Of a stretch of 58,231 nucleotides of DNA, positions 3,087 to 52,601 are shown piece after piece (positions within the stretch are counted from its first letter, which is position 1; each line of letters begins with the position of its first letter). Position numbers and translations under genes: made by a program. The notes under the pieces were generated by a model, which ran no database searches, was not told the origin of the DNA, and saw only the letters and a list, made by a program, of their open reading frames with translations. The stretch spans positions 1 through 58,231 of the forward strand of contig CAZSHZ010000093.1 of NCBI GenBank assembly GCA_964606955.1, written 5' to 3'. This DNA is from an uncultured Nitrospirota bacterium. GTDB taxonomy: Bacteria > Nitrospirota > Nitrospiria > SBBL01 > CAZSHZ01.

Positions 3087-3767
3087 ATGAACAGACAGAC
3101 GCAGGCGCTAATCGCCGAGGGGATCGGGACCTTCATCTTTTTCACGATCGGAGCAGGGTCGATCATCACCGACCAGATGACGGGGGGAAAGGTCGGTCTC
3201 CTCGGGATCGCGGCGGCCCATGGGGTCATCCTGGCAATCATGGTCTCGGCCTTCGGGCATATCTCCGGCGGTCACTTCAACCCGGCCGTCACTACAGGCC
3301 TCTGGGCGGGAAATAAGATCGGCGGAGCCCTGGCGGCCCTATACATCGGGGCCCAACTGGTCGGGGCCGTCGCCGCCGGAGTCGCGCTTCGGATCGTCTT
3401 TCCGGAAAACGTCTGGCGGCCGGTCCACCTCGGCACGCCCGGGCTGGCGCCCGGAGTCGGGTTCTCCACCGCTGTATTCTTGGAGATTCTGATGACATTC
3501 TTTCTGGTCACCGCCGTCTATGGAACGGCCGTGGATGCCAGGGGACCGAAGATCGGAGGGTTCGCGATCGGCCTGACGGTCTTCTGCGACATTCTGTTGG
3601 GCGGACCGCTCACCGGCGCTTCAATGAACCCCGCGCGGACGTTCGGTCCCGCCCTGGTTTCAGGCTACTGGGATAACCACCTGGTCTACTGGATCGGGCC
3701 GTTGATCGGCGGGGCGCTGGCGGGCCTGGTCTACAACAACTCCTTTCTGGAGACCAGGAGCAGGTAA
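3087..3767 (+). CDS. MIP-family aquaporin/glycerol-facilitator-like channel
   Basis: Two NPA boxes (GGHFNPAVT and ASMNPARTF) and six hydrophobic segments. ATG at 3087 follows GAGGAGG at 3074-3080; the track ORF extends to a GTG at 3051. Confidence 0.9.
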   Translation: MNRQTQALIAEGIGTFIFFTIGAGSIITDQMTGGKVGLLGIAAAHGVILAIMVSAFGHISGGHFNPAVTTGLWAGNKIGGALAALYIGAQLVGAVAAGVALRIVFPENVWRPVHLGTPGLAPGVGFSTAVFLEILMTFFLVTAVYGTAVDARGPKIGGFAIGLTVFCDILLGGPLTGASMNPARTFGPALVSGYWDNHLVYWIGPLIGGALAGLVYNNSFLETRSR

Positions 3768-3789
3768 CGGGTTATTATAGGGGCTTTTG

Positions 3790-3818
3790 CCCCAAGCGCG
3801 CGGCGCTCGGGGACCCCC
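3790..3818. repeat. GC-rich palindromic element, copy 1 (CCCCAAGCGC-GCG-GCGCTCGGGG-ACCCCC)
   Basis: 10-bp arms with one mismatch, a 3-nt loop and an ACCCC tail. Preceded by the mini-hairpin GGGGCTTTTGCCCC at 3780-3793. Same architecture as the copies at 3854, 8315 and 27053. Confidence 0.7.
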
Positions 3819-3853
3819 AGCGTCGCCCCCTCCACCGGCAAAGCCTGATTCCA

Positions 3854-3882
3854 CCCCGAAGGCTCGGCCTTCGGGGACCCCG
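3854..3882. repeat. GC-rich palindromic element, copy 2 (CCCCGAAGGC-TCG-GCCTTCGGGG-ACCCCG)
   Basis: Perfect 10-bp arms, a 3-nt loop and an ACCCCG tail. Confidence 0.75.
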
Positions 3883-3920
3883 CAAAACGCCTCCCCCTCT
3901 CGCTCGCGTTGCTCGCTGGG

Positions 3921-3952
3921 TAGATCCCCCCGCAAGCCGGTGGGGGGATCTA
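3921..3952. repeat. inverted repeat TAGATCCCCCC-N10-GGGGGGATCTA overlapping the tusA stop codon; possible transcript-end hairpin
   Basis: Perfect 11-bp arms at 3921-3931 and 3942-3952. No U-tract follows on either strand, so it is not a canonical intrinsic terminator. Confidence 0.4.
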
Positions 3953-4183
3953 CTTCATCTTCCTGACGTAGCATTTATAGATTTTTCCCTCTTCCACCAG
4001 CTGGAGGAGTTCCTGGCCTGAGGTCCTGCACCAGGCCGGCATATCTTTTTTGATCCCAACATCGTCGGAAAGGACCTCGACCACCTGCCCGATCGTCATC
4101 TGCTTCATCTTTTTGGAGGTCAGGATGATCGGGATCGGACAGTAGAGACCGAGGGTATCGAGGGTAAGATCCGCGACGATCAC
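3950..4183 (-). CDS. tusA: TusA-family sulfurtransferase
   Basis: 77 aa. N-terminal LDTLGLYCPIPI carries the CPxP active-site motif of TusA/SirA proteins. The start overlaps the stop of the upstream desulfurase-like gene by 4 nt. Confidence 0.75.
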   Translation of the reverse strand: MIVADLTLDTLGLYCPIPIILTSKKMKQMTIGQVVEVLSDDVGIKKDMPAWCRTSGQELLQLVEEGKIYKCYVRKMK

Positions 4184-5343
4184 CGGAGCCCCCCGCCCGC
4201 AGCATAGATCGGAGAGAGACGGCGGAGTTGAGCAACCTCCTTAGGAAAGACCTCCAGGACGTAATCGACCTGGGCATCGTCGGTCCCCCTTCCGAGCGAA
4301 AAGACCACCCCGCCGGCGGCGATGTTTGGGGGAAACCCCATTGCGGTGAGGACCGGCGAGATCTTCTGGGCGTGCGAAGCGCAGGAGGAGCCGGAGGCCG
4401 CGATGATTCCGCGGCGCTCAAGACTCTTGATCAGAGCCTCCGCCTCGACATATTCAACGCAGACGGAGGCGATCGTCGGGAGGCGGTGCTCCCGCGAACC
4501 GGTGACATGGACCAGCGGCGTCCGCTCGGCCAATCCGTCGAGAAGCCGGTCGCGAAGAGCGGCGATCCGCTCCCCGTCCGCCGAAAGTCTTTCGATCGCG
4601 ACCTCGGCGGCGGCCCCCATTCCGGCGATCGCGGCGACATTCTCAGTTCCGGCGCGTCTCCCCTCTTCCTGGATCCCCCCCTCAATCAGCGGAAGGATCC
4701 GCACTCCCCGCCGGACAGTAAGAGCCGCCGCGCCTTTGGGGCCGTAAAAGGTCGGGGCCGCCAGGGTCAGCAGGTCAATGCCAAGACGCTCCAGATCGAC
4801 CGGAATGACTCCCACGCTCGCCACCGCATCGACATGGAAGCGAATCCCACGCGAGCGTAGGACTGGCGCAATCTGTTCGATCGGCTGGATCGATCCCATC
4901 TCGCTGCTCGCATGCTGGAGGGAAGCGAGAATCGTATCGGGCCGGAGGGCCCCTTCGATATTCCTCGGATCGACCCTCCCCTCTCGATCGACGGGGAGGA
5001 CGGAAACTTCCCACCCCTCCTTTTGAAGGCTTTGGAAGGGGTGGGCAACCGAGTAGTGCTCGACGGCCGAGGTGATCAGGTGCCCCCGTTTTCCGCGCGT
5101 GCTCCCGCGGATCGCCCAGTTATTCGCCTCACTCCCGGAGGCGGTGAAAAAAATCTCTTCCGGCGAGGCTCCGATCATTCTTGCGACGGCGGCGCGGGCG
5201 TGCGCGAGCGCCTCTTTCGGCTTTTGCCCGAGCGCATGGCGGCTCTGGGCGTTTCCGAAGTCATCGGAGAGAACCGGGAGCATCGCCTCGCGCGCCTCGG
5301 GCGCAAGCGGTGTTGCGCCGATATAATCCAAATAAACTTTCAT
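4180..5343 (-). CDS. cysteine desulfurase-like class V aminotransferase-fold protein in which the PLP-binding His-Lys is replaced by Pro-Thr
   Basis: Aligns along its full length with the bona fide IscS in this window. IDLLTLAAPTFYGPKGAAAL aligns with [20 protein letters not shown]. The persulfide loop Cys is retained (ASGSSCAS versus SSGSACTT). Confidence 0.8.
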   Translation of the reverse strand: MKVYLDYIGATPLAPEAREAMLPVLSDDFGNAQSRHALGQKPKEALAHARAAVARMIGASPEEIFFTASGSEANNWAIRGSTRGKRGHLITSAVEHYSVAHPFQSLQKEGWEVSVLPVDREGRVDPRNIEGALRPDTILASLQHASSEMGSIQPIEQIAPVLRSRGIRFHVDAVASVGVIPVDLERLGIDLLTLAAPTFYGPKGAAALTVRRGVRILPLIEGGIQEEGRRAGTENVAAIAGMGAAAEVAIERLSADGERIAALRDRLLDGLAERTPLVHVTGSREHRLPTIASVCVEYVEAEALIKSLERRGIIAASGSSCASHAQKISPVLTAMGFPPNIAAGGVVFSLGRGTDDAQVDYVLEVFPKEVAQLRRLSPIYAAGGGLR

Positions 5344-5347
5344 GCCG

Positions 5348-5365
5348 GCCTATGATACCATAGGC
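5348..5365. promoter_or_regulatory. perfect palindrome GCCTATG-ATAC-CATAGGC within the 24-nt spacer between divergent start codons
   Basis: Read directly from the DNA. The spacer between the minus-strand ATG (5343) and the plus-strand ATG (5368) is almost entirely this dyad. Confidence 0.35.
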
Positions 5366-5367
5366 AT

Positions 5368-5685
5368 ATGAGGTTCGGCCTTCTCCTCTCCACTCCGCCG
5401 GAAGCGCTTGATTGCGAGACCGCCGTCAATCTGGCAAGTCGTGCGATCGAACGGGGAAATGAGGTCTATCTCTATCTTGTCGACGACGGGGTGAAGAACC
5501 TCGATCGTCCTGAGATCTCCGATCTTACCCGGCGGGGGGCCCACCTCTTCCTCTGCGCATACGGCGGACAGCGGCGTGGGATTCACGCCTCCGATCCGAA
5601 GCATGCCGACTTCTCCGGCGCCTTCGCCGGGCTCGTCGTCCTCTCCGATCTGGTAAAAGGCTGCGACAAGTTCGTCTCCTTTTGA
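5368..5685 (+). CDS. DsrE/TusD-like sulfur relay protein
   Basis: MRFGLLLS start. LFLCAYGGQRRGI matches the TusD NICVAAALRRGV active-Cys region, and the C-terminal GCDKFVSF resembles TCDRVVQF. Confidence 0.65.
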   Translation: MRFGLLLSTPPEALDCETAVNLASRAIERGNEVYLYLVDDGVKNLDRPEISDLTRRGAHLFLCAYGGQRRGIHASDPKHADFSGAFAGLVVLSDLVKGCDKFVSF

Positions 5686-6020
5686 AAGTCGTCGTCCTTA
5701 TCCGGACCGACCCACGATCCTCTCACCGCCCCTGCGAGGGGGTCCGGATCGCGTTAGGGCTCGCCGCCGGCGACCATGAAGTGGACGTTATCCTCTCGGG
5801 GAAGTCCCCGCTGCTGCTCTCCCAGACCGACGATATGGTCGACGGAGAGATGGCCGAGAAATATCTCCCCTCGCTCAAGGAATATGTTCCGAAATTCTAC
5901 GTGGAGAGGGAGACGGTTGATCCGGCCGATCTGGACGGGACCGATTATGAAATCGAGCCGCTGGGTGCAAAGGAGGTCGCGCAGAGGCTAGCTTCGGCCG
6001 ATCGCTCGATCATCTTCTGA
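5682..6020 (+). CDS. DsrF/TusC-like protein
   Basis: 112 aa with a 4-nt overlap with the preceding gene. MKVVVLIRTDP start, DsrE-fold-like pattern, and a C-terminal ...IIF ending as in TusC. Confidence 0.5.
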   Translation: MKVVVLIRTDPRSSHRPCEGVRIALGLAAGDHEVDVILSGKSPLLLSQTDDMVDGEMAEKYLPSLKEYVPKFYVERETVDPADLDGTDYEIEPLGAKEVAQRLASADRSIIF

Positions 6021-6262
6021 TGCCCCGCAAGATTCTTCATATCGTGCGGCGCACCGACGACCCGCACGCCCTCGCGGTGGCGGCGCGCCAGCGCGAGGCA
6101 GGGGAAGAGGTGACGGTGGTGTTGATCCACGAGGCCGCCGGGGTTCCGGTGAGCCCGCCGAAACCTCTGGAGGGGGCGGTCTTTCCGCTGCCCCCCTCCG
6201 CCGAGGGTTACGACCGCCTTTTTGAGCTGATCGCGGTCGCCGACTCGATCGTCACCTGGTAA
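6020..6262 (+). CDS. DsrH/TusB-like protein
   Basis: 80 aa with start overlapping the previous stop. The C-terminal YDRLFELIAVADSIVTW resembles the TusB tail YTDFVRL...MAW. This is a weak call. Confidence 0.4.
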   Translation: MPRKILHIVRRTDDPHALAVAARQREAGEEVTVVLIHEAAGVPVSPPKPLEGAVFPLPPSAEGYDRLFELIAVADSIVTW

Positions 6263-6475: not shown

Positions 6476-6798
6476 CAGTGCTGCTCCGCGACCCGCCAGC
6501 TCTGCGTCTCCGGCAGGATCTCGACGGTGACGTCTCCCTCCTTCAGCCGCGCCTGACAACCGAGGCGGGAGGTCAGGGTGAGCCCTTCGGCGGTGTCGAG
6601 CCGGTCCTCCTCATCCTCCTGCATCTTGGAAAGATGATCTATGCCCGACTTCACGATGACATGGCAGGTCGTGCAGGCGCAGTTTCCGCCGCAGTTGTGT
6701 TCCAGTTCGATGTGATGCTCCAGGGCCACATCCAAAATGCTCTGCCCTTCTTTCCCCTCCACCGTGATGTTCTGGGGAAGAAAGGTGACCTTAGGCAT
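6475..6798 (-). CDS. fdx: ISC-type [2Fe-2S] ferredoxin
   Basis: Cys ligands sit in the [12 protein letters not shown]...C pattern. Positioned after hscA. Confidence 0.9.
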
Positions 6799-8644
6799 CT
6801 TTCTTCTCCAGCGCTTCTTTGACGGCGCGGCTCATCAAGCTCTCGGCCAGCGGCATCGCGGCCGAATCAAGCCTCTCCAGCGCCTGCCGGATCGCCTGAT
6901 GGTCATTTCCGGCAACCGCCTGCTCGACCCCCTTCCTCGCCTCCCGAATCTCGGCGATCATCTCCGGGGCAGCAACCCCCTCCGCCTGCGCCAGCGCCTT
7001 TTCGGCGTGACGCAAGACCCCCTGGGCCTCGGTCCGCGCCTCAATCAGCATCCGCTCGGACATATCGGCGCGGGCGAAATGGATCGACTCCTCGATCATC
7101 CGCTCGACCTCGGCGTCCATCAATCCGTAAGACGGCTTCACCTCGATCCCCGCCTCCTTGTTCGTCCGCAGTTCCTTGGCGCGGACCTGGAGGATGCCGT
7201 TCGCGTCGATCAGAAACGTCACCTCGATCTTGGGGATCCCCGCCGGCATCGGATCGATCTTAAGATCGAAGCGCGCAAGCGAGCGGCAGTCGCGGACCAG
7301 TTCGCGCTCCCCCTGCACCACATGGATCGGCACCCTCGTCTGCCCGTCCATAAAGGTCGTGAACATCTCTTTGGCGGAAGCGGGGATCGTCGTATTGCGC
7401 GCGATCAGCTTGCTGACGACGCCCCCCATCGTCTCCATCCCGAGCGACAGCGGCGTCACGTCCAGCAGGAGAAGATCCTTAATGCCGCCGGCGAGGATGT
7501 CGGCTTGAACCGCCGCGCCGAGCGCGACGACCTCGTCGGGATTGAGCTCCGAGTGCGGCTTCTTGCCGAAGACCTCCTCGACCCGTCGGCGCACCAGAGG
7601 CATCCGGGTAGCCCCGCCCACAAGAATCACCTCATCGAGCTGTTCGGGCGCAAGCCGCGCATCCTCAAGCGCCTGGCGGCAGGGGGGGATCGTCCGCTCG
7701 ACGATGTCGGACGACCACTCCTCCAACTCGCGCCGGCTCAATACCCGGCGGTAGTCGACGCTGTCCCGGCAGACCGCCATCTCGGCGGTTGCTTCGAACG
7801 AGAGGCGGCACTTCGCCTCCTCGGCCGCAAGACGGACCGCCTGCATTAACTCCCGGTCGGCCTCGATCGGGCCTCCCGCCCGCTCGGCGACCTCCCCGGC
7901 CACGCGATCGACGATCCGCCGATCGATGTCGTCTCCTCCCAGGTGGGTATCGCCGTTCGTCGCGAGGACCTCAAAGACCCCCTCCTTGATCTTGAGGATT
8001 GAGATGTCGAACGTCCCGCCCCCCAGATCGTAGACCGCGATGATCCCTTCCTTCTTCTTCTGAAGCCCGTAGGCGAGGGAGGCCGCCGTCGGTTCATTGA
8101 CGATCCGCAAGACCTCCAGCCCCGCGATCTTGCCGGCGTCCTTCGTCGCCTGTCTCTGCGCGTCGTTGAAATAGGCCGGGACAGTGATGACCGCCTGGCC
8201 GACCAGCTCGCCGAAGAAGAGCTCCGCCCTCCGCTTCAACTCCTGGAGGATCAGCGCGGAGATCTCGGGCGGCGTGTAGATCCGCCCCCCCACTACGATC
8301 CGGACGATCTCCCGCCCCGAGCGCTCAGCGCTCGGGGACCCCGACTGCTGGGGCCCCGACTCCTCCGAGAGTCGGAACGGGAAATAGGCCAACTCGCTTT
8401 TGACATCGTCGCTCCCTCTCCCCATGAACCGCTTGATCGAGTAGATCGTCTGCTCCGCGTTCACAACGAGCTGCTTTTTGGCCTCGTATCCGATGCTCGC
8501 CGAGCCTTCCGGAGAGAAAGTCACCACGGAGGGGAGGAGGGGCCTCCCCTTCTCGTCCGGAATGACGCGCGGCTCCCCCCGATCCATGAAGGCCACCAGG
8601 CTGTTGGTCGTTCCGAGATCGATTCCGACCACGCGCGAGCTCAT
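6791..8644 (-). CDS. hscA: Fe-S cluster assembly chaperone HscA (Hsp70 family)
   Basis: [24 protein letters not shown] and the full Hsp70 architecture. Start set at MSSRVVGID (ATG at 8644), an ATGA overlap with the hscB stop. The 63-aa upstream extension in the track overlaps hscB. Confidence 0.95.
8315..8343. repeat. GC-rich palindromic element, copy 3 (CCCCGAGCGC-TCA-GCGCTCGGGG-ACCCCG), inside hscA coding sequence
   Basis: Perfect 10-bp arms, a 3-nt loop and an ACCCCG tail. Translated on the minus strand as ...[10 protein letters not shown]... Confidence 0.7.
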
Positions 8645-22386: not shown

Positions 22387-22881
22387 CTACGGCTGCTTTG
22401 CCAGGCTCCGCTCAAAGAGGATGATCAGAGACATCTCCTCCTCGGTAATGATCGCGGGAACATACGAGATCATCCCGGTTCCAGGGCTCCCGTTCATAAT
22501 CACCCAGCGCATCTCCCCTTCGCTCTTGGTCGCCGCGAACCTTTGGTTATGGAAGTTGCGCGGGGAAGGATCGAGCCCCGCTCCGGCGGGACCGTCCCCC
22601 CTCCCCTCGTTGCCGTGGCAGGTGAAACAGGTCGCTTTCCCGGTGAAGAACTCCTTCCCCTTTGCGATGTTCTCCGGCGTCGGCGGAAAAGGGTTCTTCC
22701 AGGCCCTCGCCGCCCCGATCTGATCGGGTGGAACACGGAGCGCCAAAGGGTCCTTCTCCGCAGCATGCGCCGCGACGATCGCCAGCACCGCCGCGATCGA
22801 AGCCAAGACGGCGTACTTACTCACACTTTGCGCCGCCGAGGCTCTTTTCGAAGATGATGATCTGCCAGAGCTCGTTCTCAT
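22387..22881 (-). CDS. monoheme c-type cytochrome (paralog 2 of 3)
   Basis: CFTCHG haem site and GSPGTGM. An alternative GTG start at 22824 would cut the overlap with paralog 3 from 65 to 8 nt. Confidence 0.8.
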   Translation of the reverse strand: MRTSSGRSSSSKRASAAQSVSKYAVLASIAAVLAIVAAHAAEKDPLALRVPPDQIGAARAWKNPFPPTPENIAKGKEFFTGKATCFTCHGNEGRGDGPAGAGLDPSPRNFHNQRFAATKSEGEMRWVIMNGSPGTGMISYVPAIITEEEMSLIILFERSLAKQP

Positions 22882-23344
22882 CCACGGTTGGAGTCCCGGT
22901 TAGCCCGAGCGCCGACTCGGCGTCAATCAGATAGGGAACCATCCCCGTCCCATCCGGGTGGCTCGGAGCGTCTTTCTTGGAGAAATCCCCTTTGGTCCCG
23001 TTGGAGGTGACCCAGAACATCTCTCCGCAGCTCTTTTTCTTATGAAACTCCGGGTTGGTGAAATTCCGGGGACCGACCTGCGTTCCGGCCGCTCCCGCGC
23101 CGTCCCCTTTCCCTTCGTTCCCATGGCAGACAAAGCAGGTCGCCTTCCCGACAAAGAGCTCCTGCCCCGCCGCGACATTTTCCGGCGTGCTCGGAAGGGG
23201 GTTCTTCCTGGCCTTGGCGGCCGCTATCAAGTCGGGTGGGACTCTCGGTTTGAGCGGCTCATGTTCCGGCTTTACATCCTGTGCAACCACGTTGAGTGCA
23301 AAAAGGGCGGTGAATATCCCTGCGAGAAACCATGCTCTTTTCAT
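22817..23344 (-). CDS. monoheme c-type cytochrome (paralog 3 of 3, with an internal insertion)
   Basis: Start set at MKRAWFLAGIFTALFALNVVA (signal peptide). CFVCHG haem site. About 30 extra residues before the distal Met region compared with paralogs 1 and 2. Confidence 0.8.
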   Translation of the reverse strand: MKRAWFLAGIFTALFALNVVAQDVKPEHEPLKPRVPPDLIAAAKARKNPLPSTPENVAAGQELFVGKATCFVCHGNEGKGDGAGAAGTQVGPRNFTNPEFHKKKSCGEMFWVTSNGTKGDFSKKDAPSHPDGTGMVPYLIDAESALGLTGTPTVDENELWQIIIFEKSLGGAKCE

Positions 23345-23447
23345 CTTGATCTCCTCTAGGTTGTCCTCTGGCGATCCGTGTAGCCCTCTGTCGAAAGCGC
23401 ACTGTTTAGCACGTTCGGGCGGCTTTTTCAACTTTTTTCCGATTTTC

Positions 23448-26527: not shown

Positions 26528-27979
26528 TTACTTGCGGGCAGGCGCCGCCGCCGGGATCCGCTCCGCCTTGACCTTGGCGATCCGCCGGCCGTCCATGTCG
26601 ACCACGGTAAACTTGAAATCGCCGTAATAGATGATATCCCCACCGCGCGGGACCGCCTGAAGTTGGGAGAGGACGAAACCGCCGAGCGTCTCATATTCGG
26701 GAGATTCAGGAAGGACCAGACCCCAGTCCGAGGCGAGGTCGCGGATCGCCAAAGAGGCGTCGACGGCCAACGAGCCATCTTTCAGGCGCTCCACGGGCCG
26801 CTCTTCGATATCGTATTCATCCCGGATCTCGCCGACGATCTCCTCGATCAGATCCTCCATCGTGACGAGCCCCTCTACGCTTCCATACTCATTGACGACG
26901 ATCGCCATCTGCATCCGCCGCCGCTGCAGCTCTTTTAAAAGATGGCTCACCTTCATCGTCTCGGGGACGAAAAAGACCGGATGCAACAGATCGACGAGTT
27001 TGACCTCGGCGGCGCCGCCCTCCGGATTCCTGCGAGCGTCGGGCTTTGATAGCCCCAAAGACGCGGTCTTTGGGGACCCCGGGTCCTGCGCGAGCGCCTG
27101 AGGTCTGGGGGTTGGCTCGGAAGGGGGCAGGCCCCCTTCCGCATCATTCTTGGTCACCTTCTCGGCGAGGGTGGCCAGGAGATCCTTAAACACCAGGATC
27201 CCGCAGATATCGTTGATATTGGTCTTGTAGACCGGATAGCGGGAGAACTTGTTCTCGGCGACGAACTTCAAGACCTCCTGAACGGGGGTGTCGCTCTGGA
27301 GGGCGTGAATGTTGAGACGGTGAACCATCACCTCCCGGACGGAGATGTCGTGGAACTCGAAAACGGAATGGATCAGCTCCTGCTCGGTTGGATCGAACAC
27401 CCCCTTCTCCCTCCCCTCTTTTAAAAGGAGTCTGATCTCCTCTTCAGTCACAAAGGGGCCTGCCGGACCGGGACCCAACGGCTTTAAGATCCAGCGGCTC
27501 GTGGCGGTCAGAATCCGGGTCAACCAGGAGGAACTGCGGGCAAAAAACTCCATCGGAATGGCCACCCAAAGGGCAAGACGCTCGGGGTAGCGGATCGCCA
27601 ACGACTTCGGGACGAGCTCGCCAAAGGTCACGTTCAGATATGAGATCAGGACGACGGCGATGATCATTGCGATCGCCTCGCTGAAGCCGGCAAGAACCGG
27701 ATTGTCGAGACCCGCCAGATACGGCTTGAGGCTCTCAACCGCAGCCACCCCTCCGACCGCAGCGGCAGCCGATCCGACGATCGTGATCCCTACCTGCACG
27801 GTGGCAAGGAGCCGCTCAGGGTCCCCCTGGAGGAGGGCAGCCGCCCGGGCCGCCCGGTTCCCTTTCTCGGCCAACTCCTTGATGTTGCTCTTACGGGCCG
27901 CAATCAGCGAAATCTCGGCGCAGGCGAAAAACCCGTTTGCTAGGATCAGAAGGAGGATGAGGAGAATCTGCCAGGGCAT
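26528..27979 (-). CDS. CNNM/HlyC-CorC family transporter (DUF21 + CBS pair + CorC_HlyC) with a low-complexity insert in the CBS region
   Basis: N-terminal DUF21 TM domain (ANGFFACAEISLIAARK), CBS pair and the C-terminal CorC_HlyC domain (LGGFVLSQLQAVPRGGD). Start set at MPWQILL (27979). Confidence 0.85.
   Translation of the reverse strand: MPWQILLILLLILANGFFACAEISLIAARKSNIKELAEKGNRAARAAALLQGDPERLLATVQVGITIVGSAAAAVGGVAAVESLKPYLAGLDNPVLAGFSEAIAMIIAVVLISYLNVTFGELVPKSLAIRYPERLALWVAIPMEFFARSSSWLTRILTATSRWILKPLGPGPAGPFVTEEEIRLLLKEGREKGVFDPTEQELIHSVFEFHDISVREVMVHRLNIHALQSDTPVQEVLKFVAENKFSRYPVYKTNINDICGILVFKDLLATLAEKVTKNDAEGGLPPSEPTPRPQALAQDPGSPKTASLGLSKPDARRNPEGGAAEVKLVDLLHPVFFVPETMKVSHLLKELQRRRMQMAIVVNEYGSVEGLVTMEDLIEEIVGEIRDEYDIEERPVERLKDGSLAVDASLAIRDLASDWGLVLPESPEYETLGGFVLSQLQAVPRGGDIIYYGDFKFTVVDMDGRRIAKVKAERIPAAAPARK
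27053..27081. repeat. GC-rich palindromic element, copy 4 (CCCCAAAGAC-GCG-GTCTTTGGGG-ACCCCG), inside the CorC-family coding sequence
   Basis: Perfect 10-bp arms, a 3-nt loop and an ACCCCG tail. Preceded by GGGCTTTGATAGCCC (27041-27055) as in copy 1. Translated as ...PGSPKTASLG... Confidence 0.7.
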
Positions 27980-28110: not shown

Positions 28111-28533
28111 ATGAAGTTCTCGGCAAAAGTCGAATATGGGGTCTTTGCGGCGATCGATCTGGCAGCCAACTATGAGGGGGGTGCGGTCCGCGGGAGGGAG
28201 CTTGCGCAGCGCCAGGGGATTCCACTCCGTTTCCTAGAGCAGGTGATGAACGGTTTAAAGCAGCGCGGAATTGCGATCAGCGTGCGAGGCCCGCATGGGG
28301 GATACGCCCTGGCAAAGCCCCCTGATCAGATCCGGCTGTCTGAGGTAATCACCGCCCTGGACAGCGGAGAGCGGCCGCGAAAATCGAGCGAGCCGGGCGG
28401 CTGGGCAGGCCGGGAGATCCTCAATGAGGTCAAAAAAGAGATGGAGGGATTCCTTTCGGAGACGACCCTCCGCGATCTCGCCCGGCGGAAGGGAGAGAAG
28501 GAAGAGCGGCGTTTTTTGATGTACCACATCTAA
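28111..28533 (+). CDS. Rrf2-family transcriptional regulator without any cysteine (CymR-like)
   Basis: MKFSAKVEYGVFAAIDLA winged-helix N-terminus. The 140-aa product contains no Cys. Confidence 0.8.
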   Translation: MKFSAKVEYGVFAAIDLAANYEGGAVRGRELAQRQGIPLRFLEQVMNGLKQRGIAISVRGPHGGYALAKPPDQIRLSEVITALDSGERPRKSSEPGGWAGREILNEVKKEMEGFLSETTLRDLARRKGEKEERRFLMYHI

Positions 28534-28540
28534 AGAGACC

Positions 28541-30259
28541 ATGGAGCGAAAATACCTCGACACGGACATCCTGATCATCGGAGGGGGAACGGCCGGCTGC
28601 ATGGCCGCCGTTGAGACGAAGGAGCGCTATCCGCAGCTGAAGGTCGCGATCCTGGAGAAGGCGCATATCGACCGCTCCGGTTGCCTGGCCGGGGGGATGA
28701 ACGCGATCAACGCCTATCTGAATCCGGGCGAGACGCCGGAGTCGTTTGCCCGTTACGTCCGGTTCGACTCCTGCGGGTTGATCCGGGAGGACCTGGTCAC
28801 CTCGATGTCCGAGCTTTTTGAATACGCGGTAAAAAAGGTCGAGAAGTGGGGGCTTCCGATCCTCACCGACAAGAACGGGAACTATGTCCCGCGCGGCCGG
28901 TGGAATATCAAGATCAACGGAGAATCGCTCAAGCCGATCCTGGCAAAGGCCGCCCGGGAAGCAGGGGCCGTCGTCCACAACTGGATCGTCGTGACCAATC
29001 TTTTGACAACGGAGTCCGATCCGCGAAGGGTCATCGGAGCGACCGGTTTCTCGATCCGGACCGGGGTCTTTTTCATCGTCCGCGCCAAGGCGACGATCAT
29101 CGCCACCGGCGGCGCCGCCGGGATCTATCGATCCCTCAACGTCTTCGACGCGCAGCATAAGACTTGGTATTGCCCCTACAACACCGGAGCGGGATACGCG
29201 ATGGGGATACGGGCCGGCGCGGAGATGACCTCCTTCGAGATGCGGTACGTCGCCTTGAGAACCAAAGATGTCATCGCCCCGACCGGAACAATCGCGCTTG
29301 GGGTGAATGCCCCACAGATCAATGCAAAGGGGGAAAAGTTCATGCAGACCCGCTACGCCCATCTCGGCGGGGATGCCGCACCCACCCCCTATCGCGCCTA
29401 CGCCCCGATTCAGGAGATCAAGAGCGGGAGAGGACCGGTCTACCTCGACACCCGTGGCATCACCCCCGAGCAGGTCCATAACTTAAAGGGGGCATTTCTC
29501 GACATGTACCCCTCGCAAGTCCTCTACTGGGTCTCCAACGATATCGATCCCTCAAAAGAGCCGGTCGAGGTGCAGACGACCGAACCCTATATCGTCGGTG
29601 GGCATTGCCAGGCAGGCTATTGGGTGGATGGGGAGCGGCGCACAACCCTCCCCGGCCTCTATGCGGCGGGGGATGTGGCCGGCGGCGCGCCGTTCAAGTT
29701 CATCTCCGGCTGCTGGGCGGAGGGGGTCATCGCGGCTCGGGCAGCCGGCCGAGACGTCATCGCTCTGCCGTGGGAGGTGATCGACCCGGGTCAGGTAGAG
29801 ACCGAGGAGAAACGGGTCTTCGCGCCTCTACGCGCCCACGGCAAAATCAGAGGCGGCGTGATCCCCTATGAGATGGAGGTCCGCCTTCAAAAGATCATGG
29901 AGGAGTACGCAGGCGGCGCCTCCAGCTACTATGAGATGAACGAGGAGAGGCTTCTCATCGCCCGGCGCGAACTGGCAAGGCTCCCCGCCCAGACCCCGCA
30001 TCTGATGAGCGATGATCTGCATTCTCTCATGAAGGCGCACGAGATCATCGACCGGATCGACGTCGCGCGCGTGCTGGTGGAGCATCTGATCTATCGAAAA
30101 GAGACCCGCTGGCCCTCGTATCAGACCCGCGTCGATTATCCCCAGCGGGATGATGAGAACTGGTTAAAATTCGTTAATTCCGTCGCAAAAAACGGCGAGA
30201 TCGTGATGATGACGCGCCCCTATGAACAGATGATTGCCGGGGACCGCTACAAACCTTAA
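28541..30259 (+). CDS. aprA: adenylylsulfate (APS) reductase alpha-subunit-like flavoprotein
   Basis: FAD motif DILIIGGGTAGC. ...RSGCLAGGMNAINAYL...YVRFDSCGLIREDLV resembles archaeal/bacterial AprA as I recall it. Followed by an AprB-like ferredoxin and sat. At 572 aa it is shorter than typical AprA. Confidence 0.7.
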   Translation: MERKYLDTDILIIGGGTAGCMAAVETKERYPQLKVAILEKAHIDRSGCLAGGMNAINAYLNPGETPESFARYVRFDSCGLIREDLVTSMSELFEYAVKKVEKWGLPILTDKNGNYVPRGRWNIKINGESLKPILAKAAREAGAVVHNWIVVTNLLTTESDPRRVIGATGFSIRTGVFFIVRAKATIIATGGAAGIYRSLNVFDAQHKTWYCPYNTGAGYAMGIRAGAEMTSFEMRYVALRTKDVIAPTGTIALGVNAPQINAKGEKFMQTRYAHLGGDAAPTPYRAYAPIQEIKSGRGPVYLDTRGITPEQVHNLKGAFLDMYPSQVLYWVSNDIDPSKEPVEVQTTEPYIVGGHCQAGYWVDGERRTTLPGLYAAGDVAGGAPFKFISGCWAEGVIAARAAGRDVIALPWEVIDPGQVETEEKRVFAPLRAHGKIRGGVIPYEMEVRLQKIMEEYAGGASSYYEMNEERLLIARRELARLPAQTPHLMSDDLHSLMKAHEIIDRIDVARVLVEHLIYRKETRWPSYQTRVDYPQRDDENWLKFVNSVAKNGEIVMMTRPYEQMIAGDRYKP

Positions 30260-30270
30260 GAGGAGGACAG

Positions 30271-30651
30271 ATGCCGGTCTGGGTCGATCCTGAGAAGTGC
30301 AACGGCTGCTACGGCGCGGCCCAACCCCCTTGCCTGCGGATGTGCCCCGGAGATCTGATCGTCAAGGACATGAAGGCCGACAAGGCCTATCTGAAATATC
30401 CGGAGGACTGCTGGGACTGCCTCCCCTGCGTGAAGGCCTGCCCGGAGGAGGCGATTGAGTTTGTCCTCTCCTACCAGATCGGCTTTAGAAACGCCCGGCT
30501 GATTCCGCATGTCGCGAAGGGCCGCGACAAGATTACCTGGGAGTGCCACGACAGCCGCGGGAATATCGAGGAGTTTGTGATTCCGACGAAGATCCTCCCG
30601 ATGGCGCTCGACGAGAAGGTCGAGGGGGCCCCGATCGATTTCTCAATATGA
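30271..30651 (+). CDS. aprB: APS reductase beta-subunit-like 2x[4Fe-4S] ferredoxin
   Basis: Cys spacing C-x2-C-x7-C-x3-CP (CNGCYGAAQPPCLRMCP) and C-x2-C-x2-C-x3-CP (CWDCLPCVKACP) matches the AprB pattern. MPVWVDPEKCNGC start. Confidence 0.7.
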   Translation: MPVWVDPEKCNGCYGAAQPPCLRMCPGDLIVKDMKADKAYLKYPEDCWDCLPCVKACPEEAIEFVLSYQIGFRNARLIPHVAKGRDKITWECHDSRGNIEEFVIPTKILPMALDEKVEGAPIDFSI

Positions 30652-31820
30652 TGGCTTCGATCCCGCACGGAGGAAGGCTGGTCACCCTTTTGGCGGAGCA
30701 GCGGGATCGGGCCGATCTGGCCCGCAAGGCCTCGGGCCTGCCGAGGCTGGTGCTGACGGCCCGCCAGATGTCGGACCTGGAGCTTCTCGTCCACGGGGCG
30801 CTCTCCCCGCTGGAGGGTTTCATGGGGAGCGCCGAGTTCGAATCGGTCCTCTCCGGGATGCGACTCCCCTCCGGGCTGATCTGGTCGATTCCGATTACCC
30901 TGGCGACAAGCCGCGAGACGGCCTCCCAACTCCGCGAAGGGGGGGAGGTCGCCCTTGCCGATCCCTCCGGGAGGCCTGTGGCCCTTCTCGCGTTGGCCGA
31001 AAAATTCCCTCACAAAAAAGAGCCGGAGGCCTTGAGCGTCTACGGGACCGCGGATCCGAAACACCCCGGGGTCGCGTATGTCCTATCGATGCCCCAGATC
31101 CTTTTGGGTGGGAAAGTGATCGCTTTCTCCGATCTCCTTGGGACCGACTTCTCTGAATTCAGGCTGACGCCAAGTGAGACGCGCGGGCTTTTTGAGGAAC
31201 GGGGATGGAAGCGGATCGTCGCCTTCCAGACCCGGAACCCGATTCACCGGGCCCACGAATATATCCAGAAGTGCGCGCTTGAGATCGCCGACGGACTCCT
31301 GGTTCACCCGATCGTCGGGGAGACAAAGGGAGACGACATCTCCGCCGAGGTTCGGATGCGCTGTTACCGCGTCCTCCTCGACAACTATTATCCCAAGGAG
31401 CGCACGTTACTCGCCGTCTTTCCGGCCTCCATGCGGTATGCCGGCCCCCGGGAGGCGATCTTTCACGCCATGATCCGGAAGAACTACGGCTGCACCCACT
31501 TCATCGTCGGCCGCGACCACGCCGGAGTCGGAAACTACTACGGTCCCTTCGACGCCCAGAAGATCTTTCACCGCTTCACCGAACAAGAGCTCGGAATCAC
31601 GCCGCTCTTCTTCGACAACACCTTTTACTGCCGCCGTTGCCTCGGGATGGTATCGGCAAAGACCTGTCCCCACGACGCCACCGAGCATATCGCCCTGTCC
31701 GGGACAAAGGTTCGGGAGATGTTGATCGCGGGGATCGCCCCGCCGCCCGAATTCACCCGTCCCGAGGTCGCCGCGATATTAATTGAGGCGATGCGTGACG
31801 GGACAGGGCCGAAGCCGTGA
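30648..31820 (+). CDS. sat: sulfate adenylyltransferase (ATP sulfurylase)
   Basis: QTRNPIHRAHE and GRDHAGVGNYYGP motifs. Start at the ATGATG overlapping the aprB stop (30648/30651); the track extension upstream lies inside aprB. Confidence 0.9.
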   Translation: MMASIPHGGRLVTLLAEQRDRADLARKASGLPRLVLTARQMSDLELLVHGALSPLEGFMGSAEFESVLSGMRLPSGLIWSIPITLATSRETASQLREGGEVALADPSGRPVALLALAEKFPHKKEPEALSVYGTADPKHPGVAYVLSMPQILLGGKVIAFSDLLGTDFSEFRLTPSETRGLFEERGWKRIVAFQTRNPIHRAHEYIQKCALEIADGLLVHPIVGETKGDDISAEVRMRCYRVLLDNYYPKERTLLAVFPASMRYAGPREAIFHAMIRKNYGCTHFIVGRDHAGVGNYYGPFDAQKIFHRFTEQELGITPLFFDNTFYCRRCLGMVSAKTCPHDATEHIALSGTKVREMLIAGIAPPPEFTRPEVAAILIEAMRDGTGPKP

Positions 31821-42201: not shown

Positions 42202-45200
42202 ATGCAGATCGCAGCAGCTTATAATTTTCGGAAGGGTTTGCTTATCTTCGCGCTGGTCCTGGCGGTCCCGGCGTGGGCCTTAGGCGCGGATAACGCAGAC
42301 CAAAACATCAACGACATGCACGCCATGCACGGCGGAACCGGCACCGAGGTCTCGCGAGAGAACGCGGGCCCCGCCCTCATGGGGGCCCTGACCAACCGCC
42401 TCGACTCCGAAATCGCGCGCGCAGGCGGCCAGATGGGCGGTTTTACCTCAAGCGGACAGGCGCACGCGATGTCGCAGGGGGTCCCACTTCGGATCTCGAC
42501 TACCGAGGAGTCTGTGACGTCGGGCGGCCGGTGCCCGGACGGGGTCCCCATCAAGAACTTCGATATCTCTGCGATCAACGTCCAGATTACCCTCAACCGC
42601 TTCATGCAGTTTTTCCCCGGCTACCTCTACGCCCTGACCGAGGATCTCCCGAAGGTCCGCGAGGAGGAGAAGAAGAACGCCGAGGCCCGGAAGAGCGCCG
42701 ATGAGTTCCGCGACGCCGGGGTCTCCACCGGACTTCAGGGCGATTTGATCCAGCCGCTGGTCATCCGCGCCGGCGCGGGCGACTGCGTCCGGATCATCCT
42801 CCGCAATCAGACGACGAACGAGGAGCCGGTCAGCATCCATATCCACGGTTCAAGCCTGATCATCCGCGCCACCGGCCAAGCGGCGACGATGATAAACAAG
42901 GACTCTCTCGTCATGCCTGGAAAGAGCCAGGAGTTTGAGTGGTACATCCCCGGAGACCAGCCGGACAACGCGCACCACTTCCACAGCCATGCGGTCCGCG
43001 AGCAGTGGAACCTCGGGATGTTCGGAGCGTTGGTGGTTGAGCCGCGCGGCTCGCGCTATCTCTCCCCCTGGAGCGGAAAAGAGATGAAGAGCGGGTGGAT
43101 GGCGATGATCGAGGACCCGAACGGTCCGGACTTCCGCGAGTTCGCGATCTTCTATATGGAGATCGGGGATGAGGTCGTCCGGATTCTCGACCGCAAGGGC
43201 GAACTCCTTCCGCAGCGGGACCCCATGACCGACACGTATCGGCCCGCCGCGCGCGGCCTCAATTTAAGGAGCGAGAACCATGGGACCCGCCTTACGCTCC
43301 AGAAGGAGAAGCACGGGATCCATGACGAGTCGATGGCCTACGGATCGTACACCTTCGGAGATCCGGCCACGACTGTTCCCCGCTCCTATCTCGGCGATCC
43401 GGTCAAGTTCCGGATGATGGGGGGGGCCGAGATCATCCATTCCCATCATCTTCACGGCGGAAGCGACCGCTGGCCGCGCTCCCCCGAGGCGGTCACGAAG
43501 GCGGAGTTTGACTTTGCCGCCACATCCAGCGGGACCGGACCGGTGAAGTTCCCGCCGATTCGGACCTCCTCCGAGCGGCTGGATGTCCAGGCGATCGGCG
43601 CCGCGGAATCATTTAACGAGGTGATCGAGTGCGGTTCCGGCGGCTGCGCCTACGGCGCCGGAGACTACACCTTCCACTGCCATATTCCTCAGCACTACGT
43701 GACCGGAATGTGGGGCTTCTGGCGGGTCTACACCACCCTTCAGGCGGCGGGCTCGCAGGACGACATCATGCCGGCGCTGGCGGAGCTCCCCGATCGGAAG
43801 GGTAAGATGAAGGAGGCGGTCGATTCCTCCAAACTGGTCGGCACCACAGTGGACTGGTTTGCCGGAAAGAAGTTCAAGATTACGGCGGACAAGACCGACT
43901 GGAGTGCAAATCCCCAGATGGTTTCGATCAAGGATTGGGTGGAGATGCAGCTTCCGGCCCAGGGACTTCCGGGCGGCCAGGAGGACGAGCATAAGCAGAT
44001 CGTCTCTTACGACGCTAGCGTCTATAACTGGAAGTGGGAGAGGAATGTCGCGTTGAACGAGCCCGAGACCAAGCAGGTCTGGGCCAATTATAAATCGCCT
44101 GCCCCGGGGAAACGGCTCCCGATCCGATGGGATTCGGCCACTGGCAAGCCCTCGATTCCGTGGGAGCGACCACACCTGGGTAAGCGCCCCCCATTCTCGC
44201 CCGACCACAATCCGGCCCCGTTCTTTGAGCCGATCCGGCTCAATAAGGATGGGAAACGGACGACCGAGCCGGCCCAGCCCGGGGAAAACGGCCCTTGGAG
44301 CCTCTGCCCCTCGAACGCGCCGCGCAAATACTACACGATCAACGCGATCGGACTTCCGATCACGTTGAAAACGGCGACCGCCAAAACGCCGGCGATCGTC
44401 GATCCGGACGCCCAGATCTTCGTCCTGGAGGAGGAAGAGGCGGCGGTCCGGGTGACACCCGCCAAGCAGGTGCCGCTGGCGATCCGCGCGAACGTCTACG
44501 ACTGCGTGGACGTCGTCTTCAAGAGTAAACTTCCGGACGACAAGCGGGTGGCCAATTCCAGCAAGGTCAACATGCACCCGCACTTCTTCCAGTTCGACAT
44601 CACCGCCACCGACGGGGTGATCATCGGATTCAACTATGAGCAGTCGGTCCGGCCGTTCAACCTGTTGAAGTCGGAAGACCGGGAAGAGACACACCACGGA
44701 ATGCCGATGCCGCAGAATACAACGCTGACAAAGGCGGCCAAGGCAGGGGATCTCTCGATTACGGTCGCCTCGACAGTCCGGCATATCGACGTGAACGAGG
44801 ACAAGTTCGACACCCCGATGTTCCACCCGGGAACTGTGATCGGAATCGGCCTGGACGGAGTCGGAGAATTCGAGGCGAGAAGGATCAAGGAGATCAATGG
44901 GAACAAGGTGATCTTCACCGAACCGCTGATCAACGACCACGCGGCCGGACGGATCGTCAGCGTTGAGTACGTCCGCTACCGCTGGTATCCGGACGTCGAT
45001 CTCGGGATCGTCTTCTGGCATGACCATGTCTTCGGGCTCGACTCCTGGGGACACGGGCTGTTCGGCTCGACGATCGTCGAGCCGCCTCGCTCCACCTATC
45101 ACGATCCAACGACCGGCAAGGAGGTCCGAAGCGGTCTGGTCGTCGATATCCACACCACCGATCCGGTCTCGGCAAAAGTGACAGGGAGTTTCCGGGAGAT

Positions 45201-46986: not shown

Positions 46987-47006
46987 GCCGGTTCCGAGAT
47001 AGATCA

Positions 47007-47041
47007 GGGGCGCGAGGTTGAGGCCTCGCGCCCCTTTTTTA
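47007..47041 (+). terminator. intrinsic terminator after the multicopper oxidase gene
   Basis: GGGGCGCGAGG-ttgagg-CCTCGCGCCCC (11-bp stem) followed by TTTTTTA. Confidence 0.7.
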
Positions 47042-52562: not shown

Positions 52563-52601
52563 AGCGGCGGAAGGGGACCTGTCCCCTTCCGCAGGAGCGC
52601 G

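Follow-up and report, generated by a model that had tools for sequence, protein, structure and literature searches.

The hscA gene and its insertion

The DNA considered here is a 58-kb window (the whole stretch analysed, a contig from an environmental metagenome assembly of an uncultured Nitrospirota bacterium), together with ~12.6 kb of a sister strain that encodes exactly the same HscA protein (contig CAMTYH010000048.1 of assembly GCA_947085945.1, hereafter L108). In the window, the hscA start codon overlaps the stop codon of hscB in the arrangement ATGA, and the gene carries an in-frame segment built in part from a palindrome:

6791..8644, minus strand: hscA, 617 aa plus stop, in the cluster iscR-iscS-iscU-iscA-hscB-hscA-fdx-iscX
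8315..8356, minus strand: in-frame insertion in hscA, 42 nt or 14 codons, HscA residues 97-110, boundaries good to about 2 codons
8315..8337, plus strand: hairpin of family-1 copy C, CCCCGAGCGC-TCA-GCGCTCGGGG, with a perfect 10-bp stem, inside hscA
8338..8343, plus strand: conserved 3' tail of copy C, ACCCC(G)

An earlier note on this DNA had described the palindrome CCCCGAGCGC-TCA-GCGCTCGGGG-ACCCCG at 8315-8343 as being translated in frame, on the minus strand, within the HscA nucleotide-binding domain. The sequence agrees letter for letter, and the minus strand of hscA does read it in frame, as GSPSAERSG. The note had also put the number of extra HscA residues at ~12. The residues are present, and an alignment with 22 homologues, all of which lack them, raises the count to 14-15 at 8315-8356. 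The RFMG and TPPEISA motifs are separated by 48 aa in the window HscA, and by 33-37 aa in every one of the 116 further top homologues in which this segment was measurable. The earlier note had singled out one observation as contradicting its reading, an equally long loop in unrelated orthologues, and such a loop was seen in none of the homologues examined, including those 116.

The closest HscA among 5.8 billion proteins is 65% identical, and its MAGs of origin bear the label Nitrospirae or Candidatus Manganitrophaceae. The data contain no empty-site allele of hscA, or of the corC gene described below, the nearest orthologues being 65-69% identical. For this reason, the orthologue alignment suggested for defining the insertion places the segment at 8315-8356 but leaves its edges uncertain by ~2 codons. 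In a 23-sequence alignment, the window HscA agrees with the other sequences at all 184 invariant columns, which fits a functional gene.

The extra residues are absent from solved DnaK structures, and the turn at which they lie corresponds to residues ~96-102 in E. coli DnaK, which we take to be a beta-hairpin of nucleotide-binding subdomain IB of the Hsp70 structure. Structure prediction had been proposed as a means of deciding whether the insert is a surface loop, and the AlphaFold2 model of HscA (mean pLDDT 81.7) answers in the same sense, with pLDDT below 50 at residues 100-110 and residues 93-112 lacking secondary structure. The insert is thus predicted to form a disordered surface turn. 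Read on the coding strand, the hscA insert has local direct repeats, AGTCGGGGCCCC and AGTCGGGGTCCCC, as well as three occurrences of TCGGGG. The TCGGGG motif is found on both flanks of the insert but is shared with the hairpin stem, and a clear target-site duplication was not found at this site.

A family of hairpins in the window

The hscA palindrome is a member of a repeat family, and not a lone palindrome. Matches to the pattern CCCCRA-N11-TYGGGG start at 3790, 3854, 8315 and 27053 in the window, and all four extend directly 3' into ACCCC. By chance, 0.09 matches would be expected in the 58 kb, and at least four were reached in none of 100 shuffles. In addition to copy C, the family and its surroundings comprise the following features:

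3790..3817, plus strand: family-1 copy A, in the intergenic DNA just 3' of the aquaporin gene, with one A/C stem mismatch
3854..3881, plus strand: family-1 copy B, intergenic, oriented like copy A and 64 nt beyond it, with compensatory stem changes relative to the other copies
3920..3953, unstranded: third hairpin of the aqpZ-tusA spacer, GTAGATCCCCCC-GCAAGCCGGT-GGGGGGATCTAC, with a 12-bp stem starting with GTAG, the right arm overlapping the tusA stop codon (3950-3952)
27053..27080, plus strand: family-1 copy D, CCCCAAAGAC-GCG-GTCTTTGGGG-ACCCC, inside corC, reading GSPKTASLG

The unit of family 1 is a 23-nt hairpin, consisting of a 10-bp G+C-rich stem closed by CCCC/GGGG and a 3-nt loop, followed by the 5-nt ACCCC tail, giving ~28 nt in all. 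The stem is perfect in three of the four window copies, the mismatch in copy A being the exception, and in four of the ten pairs both sides have changed with pairing kept. Overall, 97.5% of stem cells are paired, as compared with 87% in shuffles. A covariance model trained on the four window copies scores those same copies at ~55-57 bits (E ~1e-14), and finds nothing else under E = 0.1 in the window. Copy C is identical to the intergenic copy A at 26 of 29 nt, beyond which the likeness stops. The extra HscA residues had been claimed to coincide with a dispersed palindrome, and so it proves, the other window copies being two in an intergenic spacer and one in frame in corC.

Perfect hairpins with a stem of at least 9 bp number eight in the window (2.1 ± 1.4 in simulated sequence), and five of the eight belong to family 1 or to the second family described below. 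Neither GTAG nor CGTC is conserved beside the four family-1 copies, the invariant flank being ACCCC. The module is open in 21 of 24 readings (4 copies in 6 frames).

Intrinsic terminators were considered for these hairpins and rejected, there being no U-run on the 3' side; a canonical terminator does occur elsewhere in the window, at 47006-47035, where it is followed by a T-run. The copies are not arrayed, and CRISPR or tandem repeats were likewise rejected.

The corC insertion and a composite element

The second coding copy lies in a gene for a CorC/HlyC/CNNM-type protein, as part of a longer insertion that also includes a hairpin of a second family:

26528..27979, minus strand: corC/HlyC/CNNM-family gene (DUF21-CBS-CorC_HlyC), 483 aa as compared with 425-465 aa in homologues
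27008..27157, minus strand: in-frame insertion in corC, 150 nt or 50 codons, residues 275-324, between CBS1 and CBS2
27030..27142, plus strand: composite element, made up of a family-1 hairpin, a 42-nt linker and a family-2 hairpin
27118..27141, unstranded: family-2 hairpin in corC, CGGAAGGGGG-CAGG-CCCCCTTCCG
52567..52592, unstranded: intergenic family-2 copy, GCGGAAGGGGA-CCTG-TCCCCTTCCGC, between pyruvate-dehydrogenase-type E1-beta and E2 genes

The 50 residues of the CorC insert are absent from 17 aligned homologues (58-69% identity), and AlphaFold2 assigns pLDDT below 50 to residues 283-323. The insert contains two perfect 10-bp hairpins, one of each family, and copy D is translated in the same frame as copy C in hscA. 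Family 2 has the general form GCGGAAGGGG...CCCCTTCCGC at both of its sites (27118 and 52567), and a Logan contig of run ERR3478687 has the 52567 hairpin without any difference. The ends of the composite, CTGCGAGCG... and ...CCCCTTCCGC, are not complementary, and terminal inverted repeats are therefore absent. A HMMER search with the 50-aa insert against 1.84 billion cluster representatives gave no match, at a sensitivity that is low because the proteins of this lineage are probably represented by relatives without the insert.

The corresponding DNA of the sister strain bears directly on the origin of these inserts. L108 and window positions 16319-3951 differ by 16 mismatches over 12,369 nt (99.87% identity), and the hscA insert is present in both, with none of the 16 mismatches falling inside it. 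The spacer between the convergent aqpZ and tusA genes, on the other hand, is entirely different in the two strains. In the window it is ~183 nt long, and contains copies A and B and the GTAG-headed 12-bp hairpin. In L108 it is ~117 nt long, and 113 ungapped nt of it (L108 12372-12484) are 90% identical to positions 27030-27142 of the corC insert, leaving ~36 nt of that insert outside the homology. The two composites have the same family-1 hairpin and tail, differ in the family-2 stem by one compensatory exchange of A-T for G-C, and have their other nine differences in loops and linkers. CGTC is present in just one of the two copies (corC, GCGTCGGGC; sister strain, GCGCCGGGC). No target-site duplication was seen at the corC site or at the sister-strain site.

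The 90% identity between the corC insert and an intergenic spacer of L108 shows that the insert was copied from a dispersed element, one whose content varies between strains, and the sister-strain spacer is the strongest evidence for dispersal. With this copy included, the module takes three forms, being single in hscA, a pair in direct orientation in the window's aqpZ-tusA spacer, and a composite with family 2 in corC and in the sister-strain spacer. The route by which the two spacers came to differ is a separate matter. Four SNPs are clustered in ~110 nt near the spacer, as against 12 in the remaining 12 kb, and neither of the stop codons that border the spacer is the same in the two strains, such that the difference may reflect allele replacement by homologous recombination and not transposition.

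The same comparison bears on the possibility that the palindrome arose in place, by replication slippage or template switching during the expansion of a G/C-rich hscA loop, its likeness to other copies reflecting no more than a shared composition of alternating G4 and C4 blocks. The local direct repeats AGTCGGGGCCCC and AGTCGGGGTCCCC and the triple TCGGGG of the hscA insert speak for such a process, the minimum-energy fold in the mRNA context splits the insert into two smaller hairpins formed from these repeats, and the likeness to other copies ends after ~29 nt. Composition does not readily explain, however, why 26 of 29 nt are shared with intergenic copy A, why every copy ends in the same ACCCC tail, or why the motif count is far above chance, and the 113-nt match of the corC insert to an unlinked intergenic site is not the product of a local process. 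We consider an origin in place improbable.

That the inserts are artefacts of assembly or binning, created by chimeric joining at a short repeat, is more improbable still, to the point of being negligible. The contig is metagenome-derived and the corC insert is seen in the window assembly only, which would be compatible with such an error, but an identical hscA insert is found in a second assembly, from which the window is set apart by 16 SNPs and a whole spacer, both inserts keep the reading frame and leave the downstream domains intact, and the sister-strain composite is 90%, and not 100%, identical to the corC copy, meaning that it is a separate locus.

Distribution in related genomes

A syntenic relative, GCA_016200325.1, was compared with the window ORFs over 43 kb. 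Only two insertions of at least 10 aa were found in well-conserved proteins, those in hscA and corC, and both sit on perfect 10-bp hairpins. No family-1 copy is present in the 43 kb of the relative that were compared. A scan of a genome collection with CCCCRA-N11-TYGGGGACCCC returned, among the matches listed, scattered sites in unrelated genomes and one in a related Nitrospirota MAG (L046). Two metagenome scans with copy-specific patterns returned no match. The L046 site is intergenic, and has the family-1 tail behind a weaker hairpin of family-1 type. The large multicopper-oxidase-like protein of L046 is 72% identical to its window counterpart; the hairpin hints that the distribution of family 1 may be wider than the window and its sister strain. 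No Rfam family matches anywhere in the window at gathering thresholds, and no account of repetitive extragenic palindromes (REPs) in Nitrospirota came up in our search of the literature. Neither a transposase nor a RAYT (REP-associated tyrosine transposase, of IS200/IS605 type) was detected among the 20 window ORFs scanned against Pfam.

Comparison with known repeat elements

Among the closest known elements are the REPs, including the intragenic ones described by Di Nocera et al. (2013, PMC3733652). Like REPs and BIMEs, family 1 is a G+C-rich stem-loop of ~28 nt with a conserved unpaired end, falls within the 20-40 nt expected of a short stem-loop palindrome, and occurs as singles, pairs and clusters (PMC3733652). 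Three of the five family-1 copies seen here are extragenic and lie 22 to ~70 nt from a stop codon, in a spacer between convergent genes, which resembles the usual location of REPs. Also shared with REPs are a content that varies between strains, and the presence of some copies in frame, where they encode loop-like segments (PMC3733652). The family differs in having ACCCC where REPs carry a terminal GTAG or CGTC tag, in that the pair in the spacer is direct and not inverted, in the lack of a RAYT gene among the 20 scanned window ORFs, and in its host, as Nitrospirota is not among the phyla of GTAG-repeat hosts named in the sections of PMC3733652 used here. The GGGGWSAS motif of TIRYT-associated inverted repeats, as given in the same sections, was also considered and rejected, since the hairpins read GGGGWCCC and fail at the seventh position.

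REPINs consist of two REPs in inverted orientation with a spacer, and are mobilised by RAYTs (PMC3116915, PMC3337134). The aqpZ-tusA spacer and the composite similarly have two hairpin units with ~40 nt between them. However, copies A and B are direct, both on the plus strand and 64 nt apart, the hairpins of the composite are of two families, and the scanned window ORFs include no RAYT. A likeness to MITEs also exists, the composite being a small (~114 nt, in the MITE size range), non-autonomous repeat able to fuse in frame with host ORFs, but it lacks the terminal inverted repeats of 15-30 bp and a clear target-site duplication. For a review of MITEs and RPEs in frame, see PMC10969869. Thus, failing the GTAG/CGTC tag, the inverted pair of REPINs and the terminal inverted repeats of MITEs, family 1 is best described as REP-like, and not as a member of any of these classes.

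The earlier note had likened the hscA palindrome to the Rickettsia palindromic elements (RPEs), with the remark that such in-frame colonisation is rarely reported elsewhere. RPEs are palindromic repeats found in frame in unrelated housekeeping genes, at sites compatible with the protein fold (Ogata et al. 2000, as summarised in PMC10969869 and the sections of PMC3733652 used here), and end in CGTC (PMC3733652, same sections). As an analogy of behaviour the comparison is apt, the inserts in hscA and corC being in frame in conserved genes at predicted surface loops, with further copies in intergenic DNA, and the 150-nt corC insert falling within the RPE size range. The phenomenon is not confined to Rickettsia, though. 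The same sections of PMC3733652 list intragenic REPs with GTAG and CGTC tags from a number of species, Opitutus terrae, Thauera and Thioalkalivibrio among them, and give 20-30 aa as encoded by in-frame REP dimers and 43-82 aa by clusters. The hscA unit also differs from RPEs in being just 42 nt long, the CGTC end is not conserved in the composite, which would count against a place in RPE-1 to RPE-10, and no relationship to RPEs in sequence is evident. In addition, the host is G+C-rich and environmental, with a broad set of metabolic genes, in contrast to the reduced, obligate intracellular hosts of RPEs.

Origin and maintenance of the inserts

In the sequences at hand, a repeat family, two lineage-specific in-frame inserts at predicted disordered loop sites, and an element content that varies between strains are all documented. 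We conclude that the hscA palindrome is very probably a copy of a lineage-specific, dispersed, REP-like hairpin module that surface loops can accommodate in frame. A unit of 39-42 nt would have landed at the tip of the beta-hairpin of the HscA nucleotide-binding domain (about residues 96-102 of DnaK, in subdomain IB), and may have persisted because its length is a multiple of three, the frame used has no stop codon, and the product is a short, disordered surface loop rich in Gly, Ser and Pro. More generally, the units would have been inserted as DNA and survived where the frame was preserved and where the fold tolerates a flexible loop, and we infer that the inserts are selectively neutral. 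As for movement, the most plausible routes would be recombination between copies or, in the manner of REPs, a single-stranded hairpin on which a tyrosine or HUH-type transposase acts in trans. The five family-1 copies (four in the window and one in the sister strain) share one orientation, as expected for strand-specific insertion of a single strand, but five copies are too few to give this weight.

A different emphasis would be that the hairpins are selected as functional cis-elements, acting as mRNA 3' ends or decay boundaries (for instance, of the isc operon transcript) or as protein-bound sites, and that the coding copies have been co-opted. This possibility overlaps with the dispersed-module reading, as the origin could lie in dispersal and the maintenance in function. 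In favour of it, the intergenic copies abut the stop codons of convergent genes, and all five family-1 copies have a single orientation. Moreover, both coding copies have perfect 10-bp stems as against the mismatch in intergenic copy A, and the 40 stem nt compared between corC and the sister copy have undergone just the one compensatory exchange, while nine differences accumulated in loops and linkers. That exchange could nevertheless predate insertion, if the two composites derive from different source copies. The hairpins also have no U-tract, even though a canonical terminator exists at 47006-47035, their folding z-scores in the coding context are unremarkable (-1.8 and -1.3), no Rfam family is matched, and the syntenic relative GCA_016200325.1 has the same operons without the elements. 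A role as selected cis-elements is on balance unlikely.

Returning to dispersal, the module could belong to a class of untagged REP-like mobile elements (CCCC...GGGG-ACCCC) that is currently active in environmental Nitrospirota and repeatedly seeds surface loops in conserved proteins. This is a speculative extension, and we hold it to be doubtful. If true, such a class would provide a tractable natural system for studying protein segments born from selfish DNA outside obligate intracellular bacteria, and possibly a new mobilising enzyme.

Rickettsia and a few REP-rich bacteria were already the main known examples of in-frame palindromic repeats in conserved genes, and the hscA and corC inserts do not alter what is understood of the behaviour of such elements. 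The additions are a G+C-rich Nitrospirota host lineage, known from environmental metagenome assemblies only, and two targets, an Fe-S cluster chaperone (HscA) and a CNNM/CorC-type transporter, with the intergenic composite of the sister strain tying the corC coding insert directly to a dispersed element. The main remaining value of the case is the untagged type of hairpin and the variation at the level of strains. For annotation, it advises caution, in that lineage-specific loops in conserved proteins may have a repeat-derived origin. Material for testing is provided by the two protein inserts, a predicted HscA tryptic peptide of 17 residues, and a spacer that differs between assemblies.

Strain differences around the aqpZ-tusA spacer

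Between window positions 3663-4058 and positions 12260-12592 of L108, the sister-strain contig, the density of single-nucleotide differences is approximately 30 times that of the remaining 12 kb, and this divergent stretch adjoins the swapped aqpZ-tusA spacer. The mismatches near the spacer fall at 3953, 4049, 4052 and 4058, and the final codons of aqpZ read AGC AGG TAA in one assembly and ACC AGG TAG in the other. This pattern suggests that a divergent allele was brought in at this site by recombination. The tusA end carries a hairpin of its own:

Window 3920-3953: hairpin GTAGATCCCCCC-GCAAGCCGGT-GGGGGGATCTAC with a 12-bp stem.

This hairpin, present as a single copy within the window, starts with GTAG, the classical REP tag. 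Its right arm provides the tusA stop codon, which is TAG in the window and TAA in the sister strain, as well as a synonymous change in the last lysine codon of the gene.

Family-2 hairpin and the edge of the corC insert

The second hairpin family is represented outside corC by the following copy:

Window 52567-52592: family-2 hairpin GCGGAAGGGGA-CCTG-TCCCCTTCCGC.

This copy separates the genes for E1-beta and E2 of a 2-oxoacid dehydrogenase, in a spacer of 39 nt. It shares 92% identity with the hairpin of the corC insert and has an exact counterpart in a Logan contig (run ERR3478687). The corC insert also has at one edge a perfect 12-nt palindrome, GGCGGCGCCGCC (window 27008-27019), that translates as GGAA and lies beyond the 113-nt stretch homologous to the element of the sister strain. 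About 36 nt of the insert fall outside that homology.

Related hairpins, terminators and look-alike motifs

Two further structures were noted:

L046 515-562 (CAZOFJ010000005.1, uncultured Nitrospirota MAG): family-1-like hairpin CCCCAAAAGC-AGG-CGTTTTGGGG-ACCCCGG with an 8-bp stem.
Window 47006-47035: canonical intrinsic terminator with the 12-bp stem AGGGGCGCGAGG...CCTCGCGCCCCT and a downstream T-run, TTTTTATT.

The L046 hairpin has the same tail as family 1, the REP-like repeat found in hscA and corC, and is located approximately 500 nt upstream of a multicopper-oxidase-like gene, whose 1608-aa product is 72% identical to that of the 1594-aa ORF in the window (42202-46986). The terminator follows this ORF, and its presence indicates that U-tract terminators are used by the organism, from which the family-1 hairpins differ.

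Among the matches listed, a conserved motif, CTCCTCCTCT-CCCCAAAATC-N3-GATTTYGGGG-ACCCC, occurs in many gut Firmicutes MAGs (Ruminococcus and Clostridia MAGs; loci L019, L026, L033, L039, L040, L044, L045, L062, L071, L081, L087, L090, L099 and L107). Read on the opposite strand, it forms a hairpin followed directly by AGAGGAGGAG, a Shine-Dalgarno-like run. The structure probably represents a conserved hairpin of a leader or regulatory type, unrelated to the hairpins in hscA and corC.

Other insertions and gene neighbourhood

Compared with the syntenic relative (GCA_016200325.1), a cytochrome c ORF at 22817-23431 (minus strand) contains two insertions of 11-13 aa, in an alignment made less certain by an identity of just 41%. 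Neither insertion is accompanied by a notable hairpin, the best stem being 5 bp.

The isc cluster and corC are flanked by sulfur-related genes (window 3951-6260 and 28111-31820). One flank holds tusA, a gene call of 77 aa taken from the sister contig, together with two DsrE-like genes and a second class-V aminotransferase. The other holds an Rrf2 regulator as well as genes in synteny with those for the relative's AprA-like flavoprotein, ferredoxin and ATP sulfurylase.
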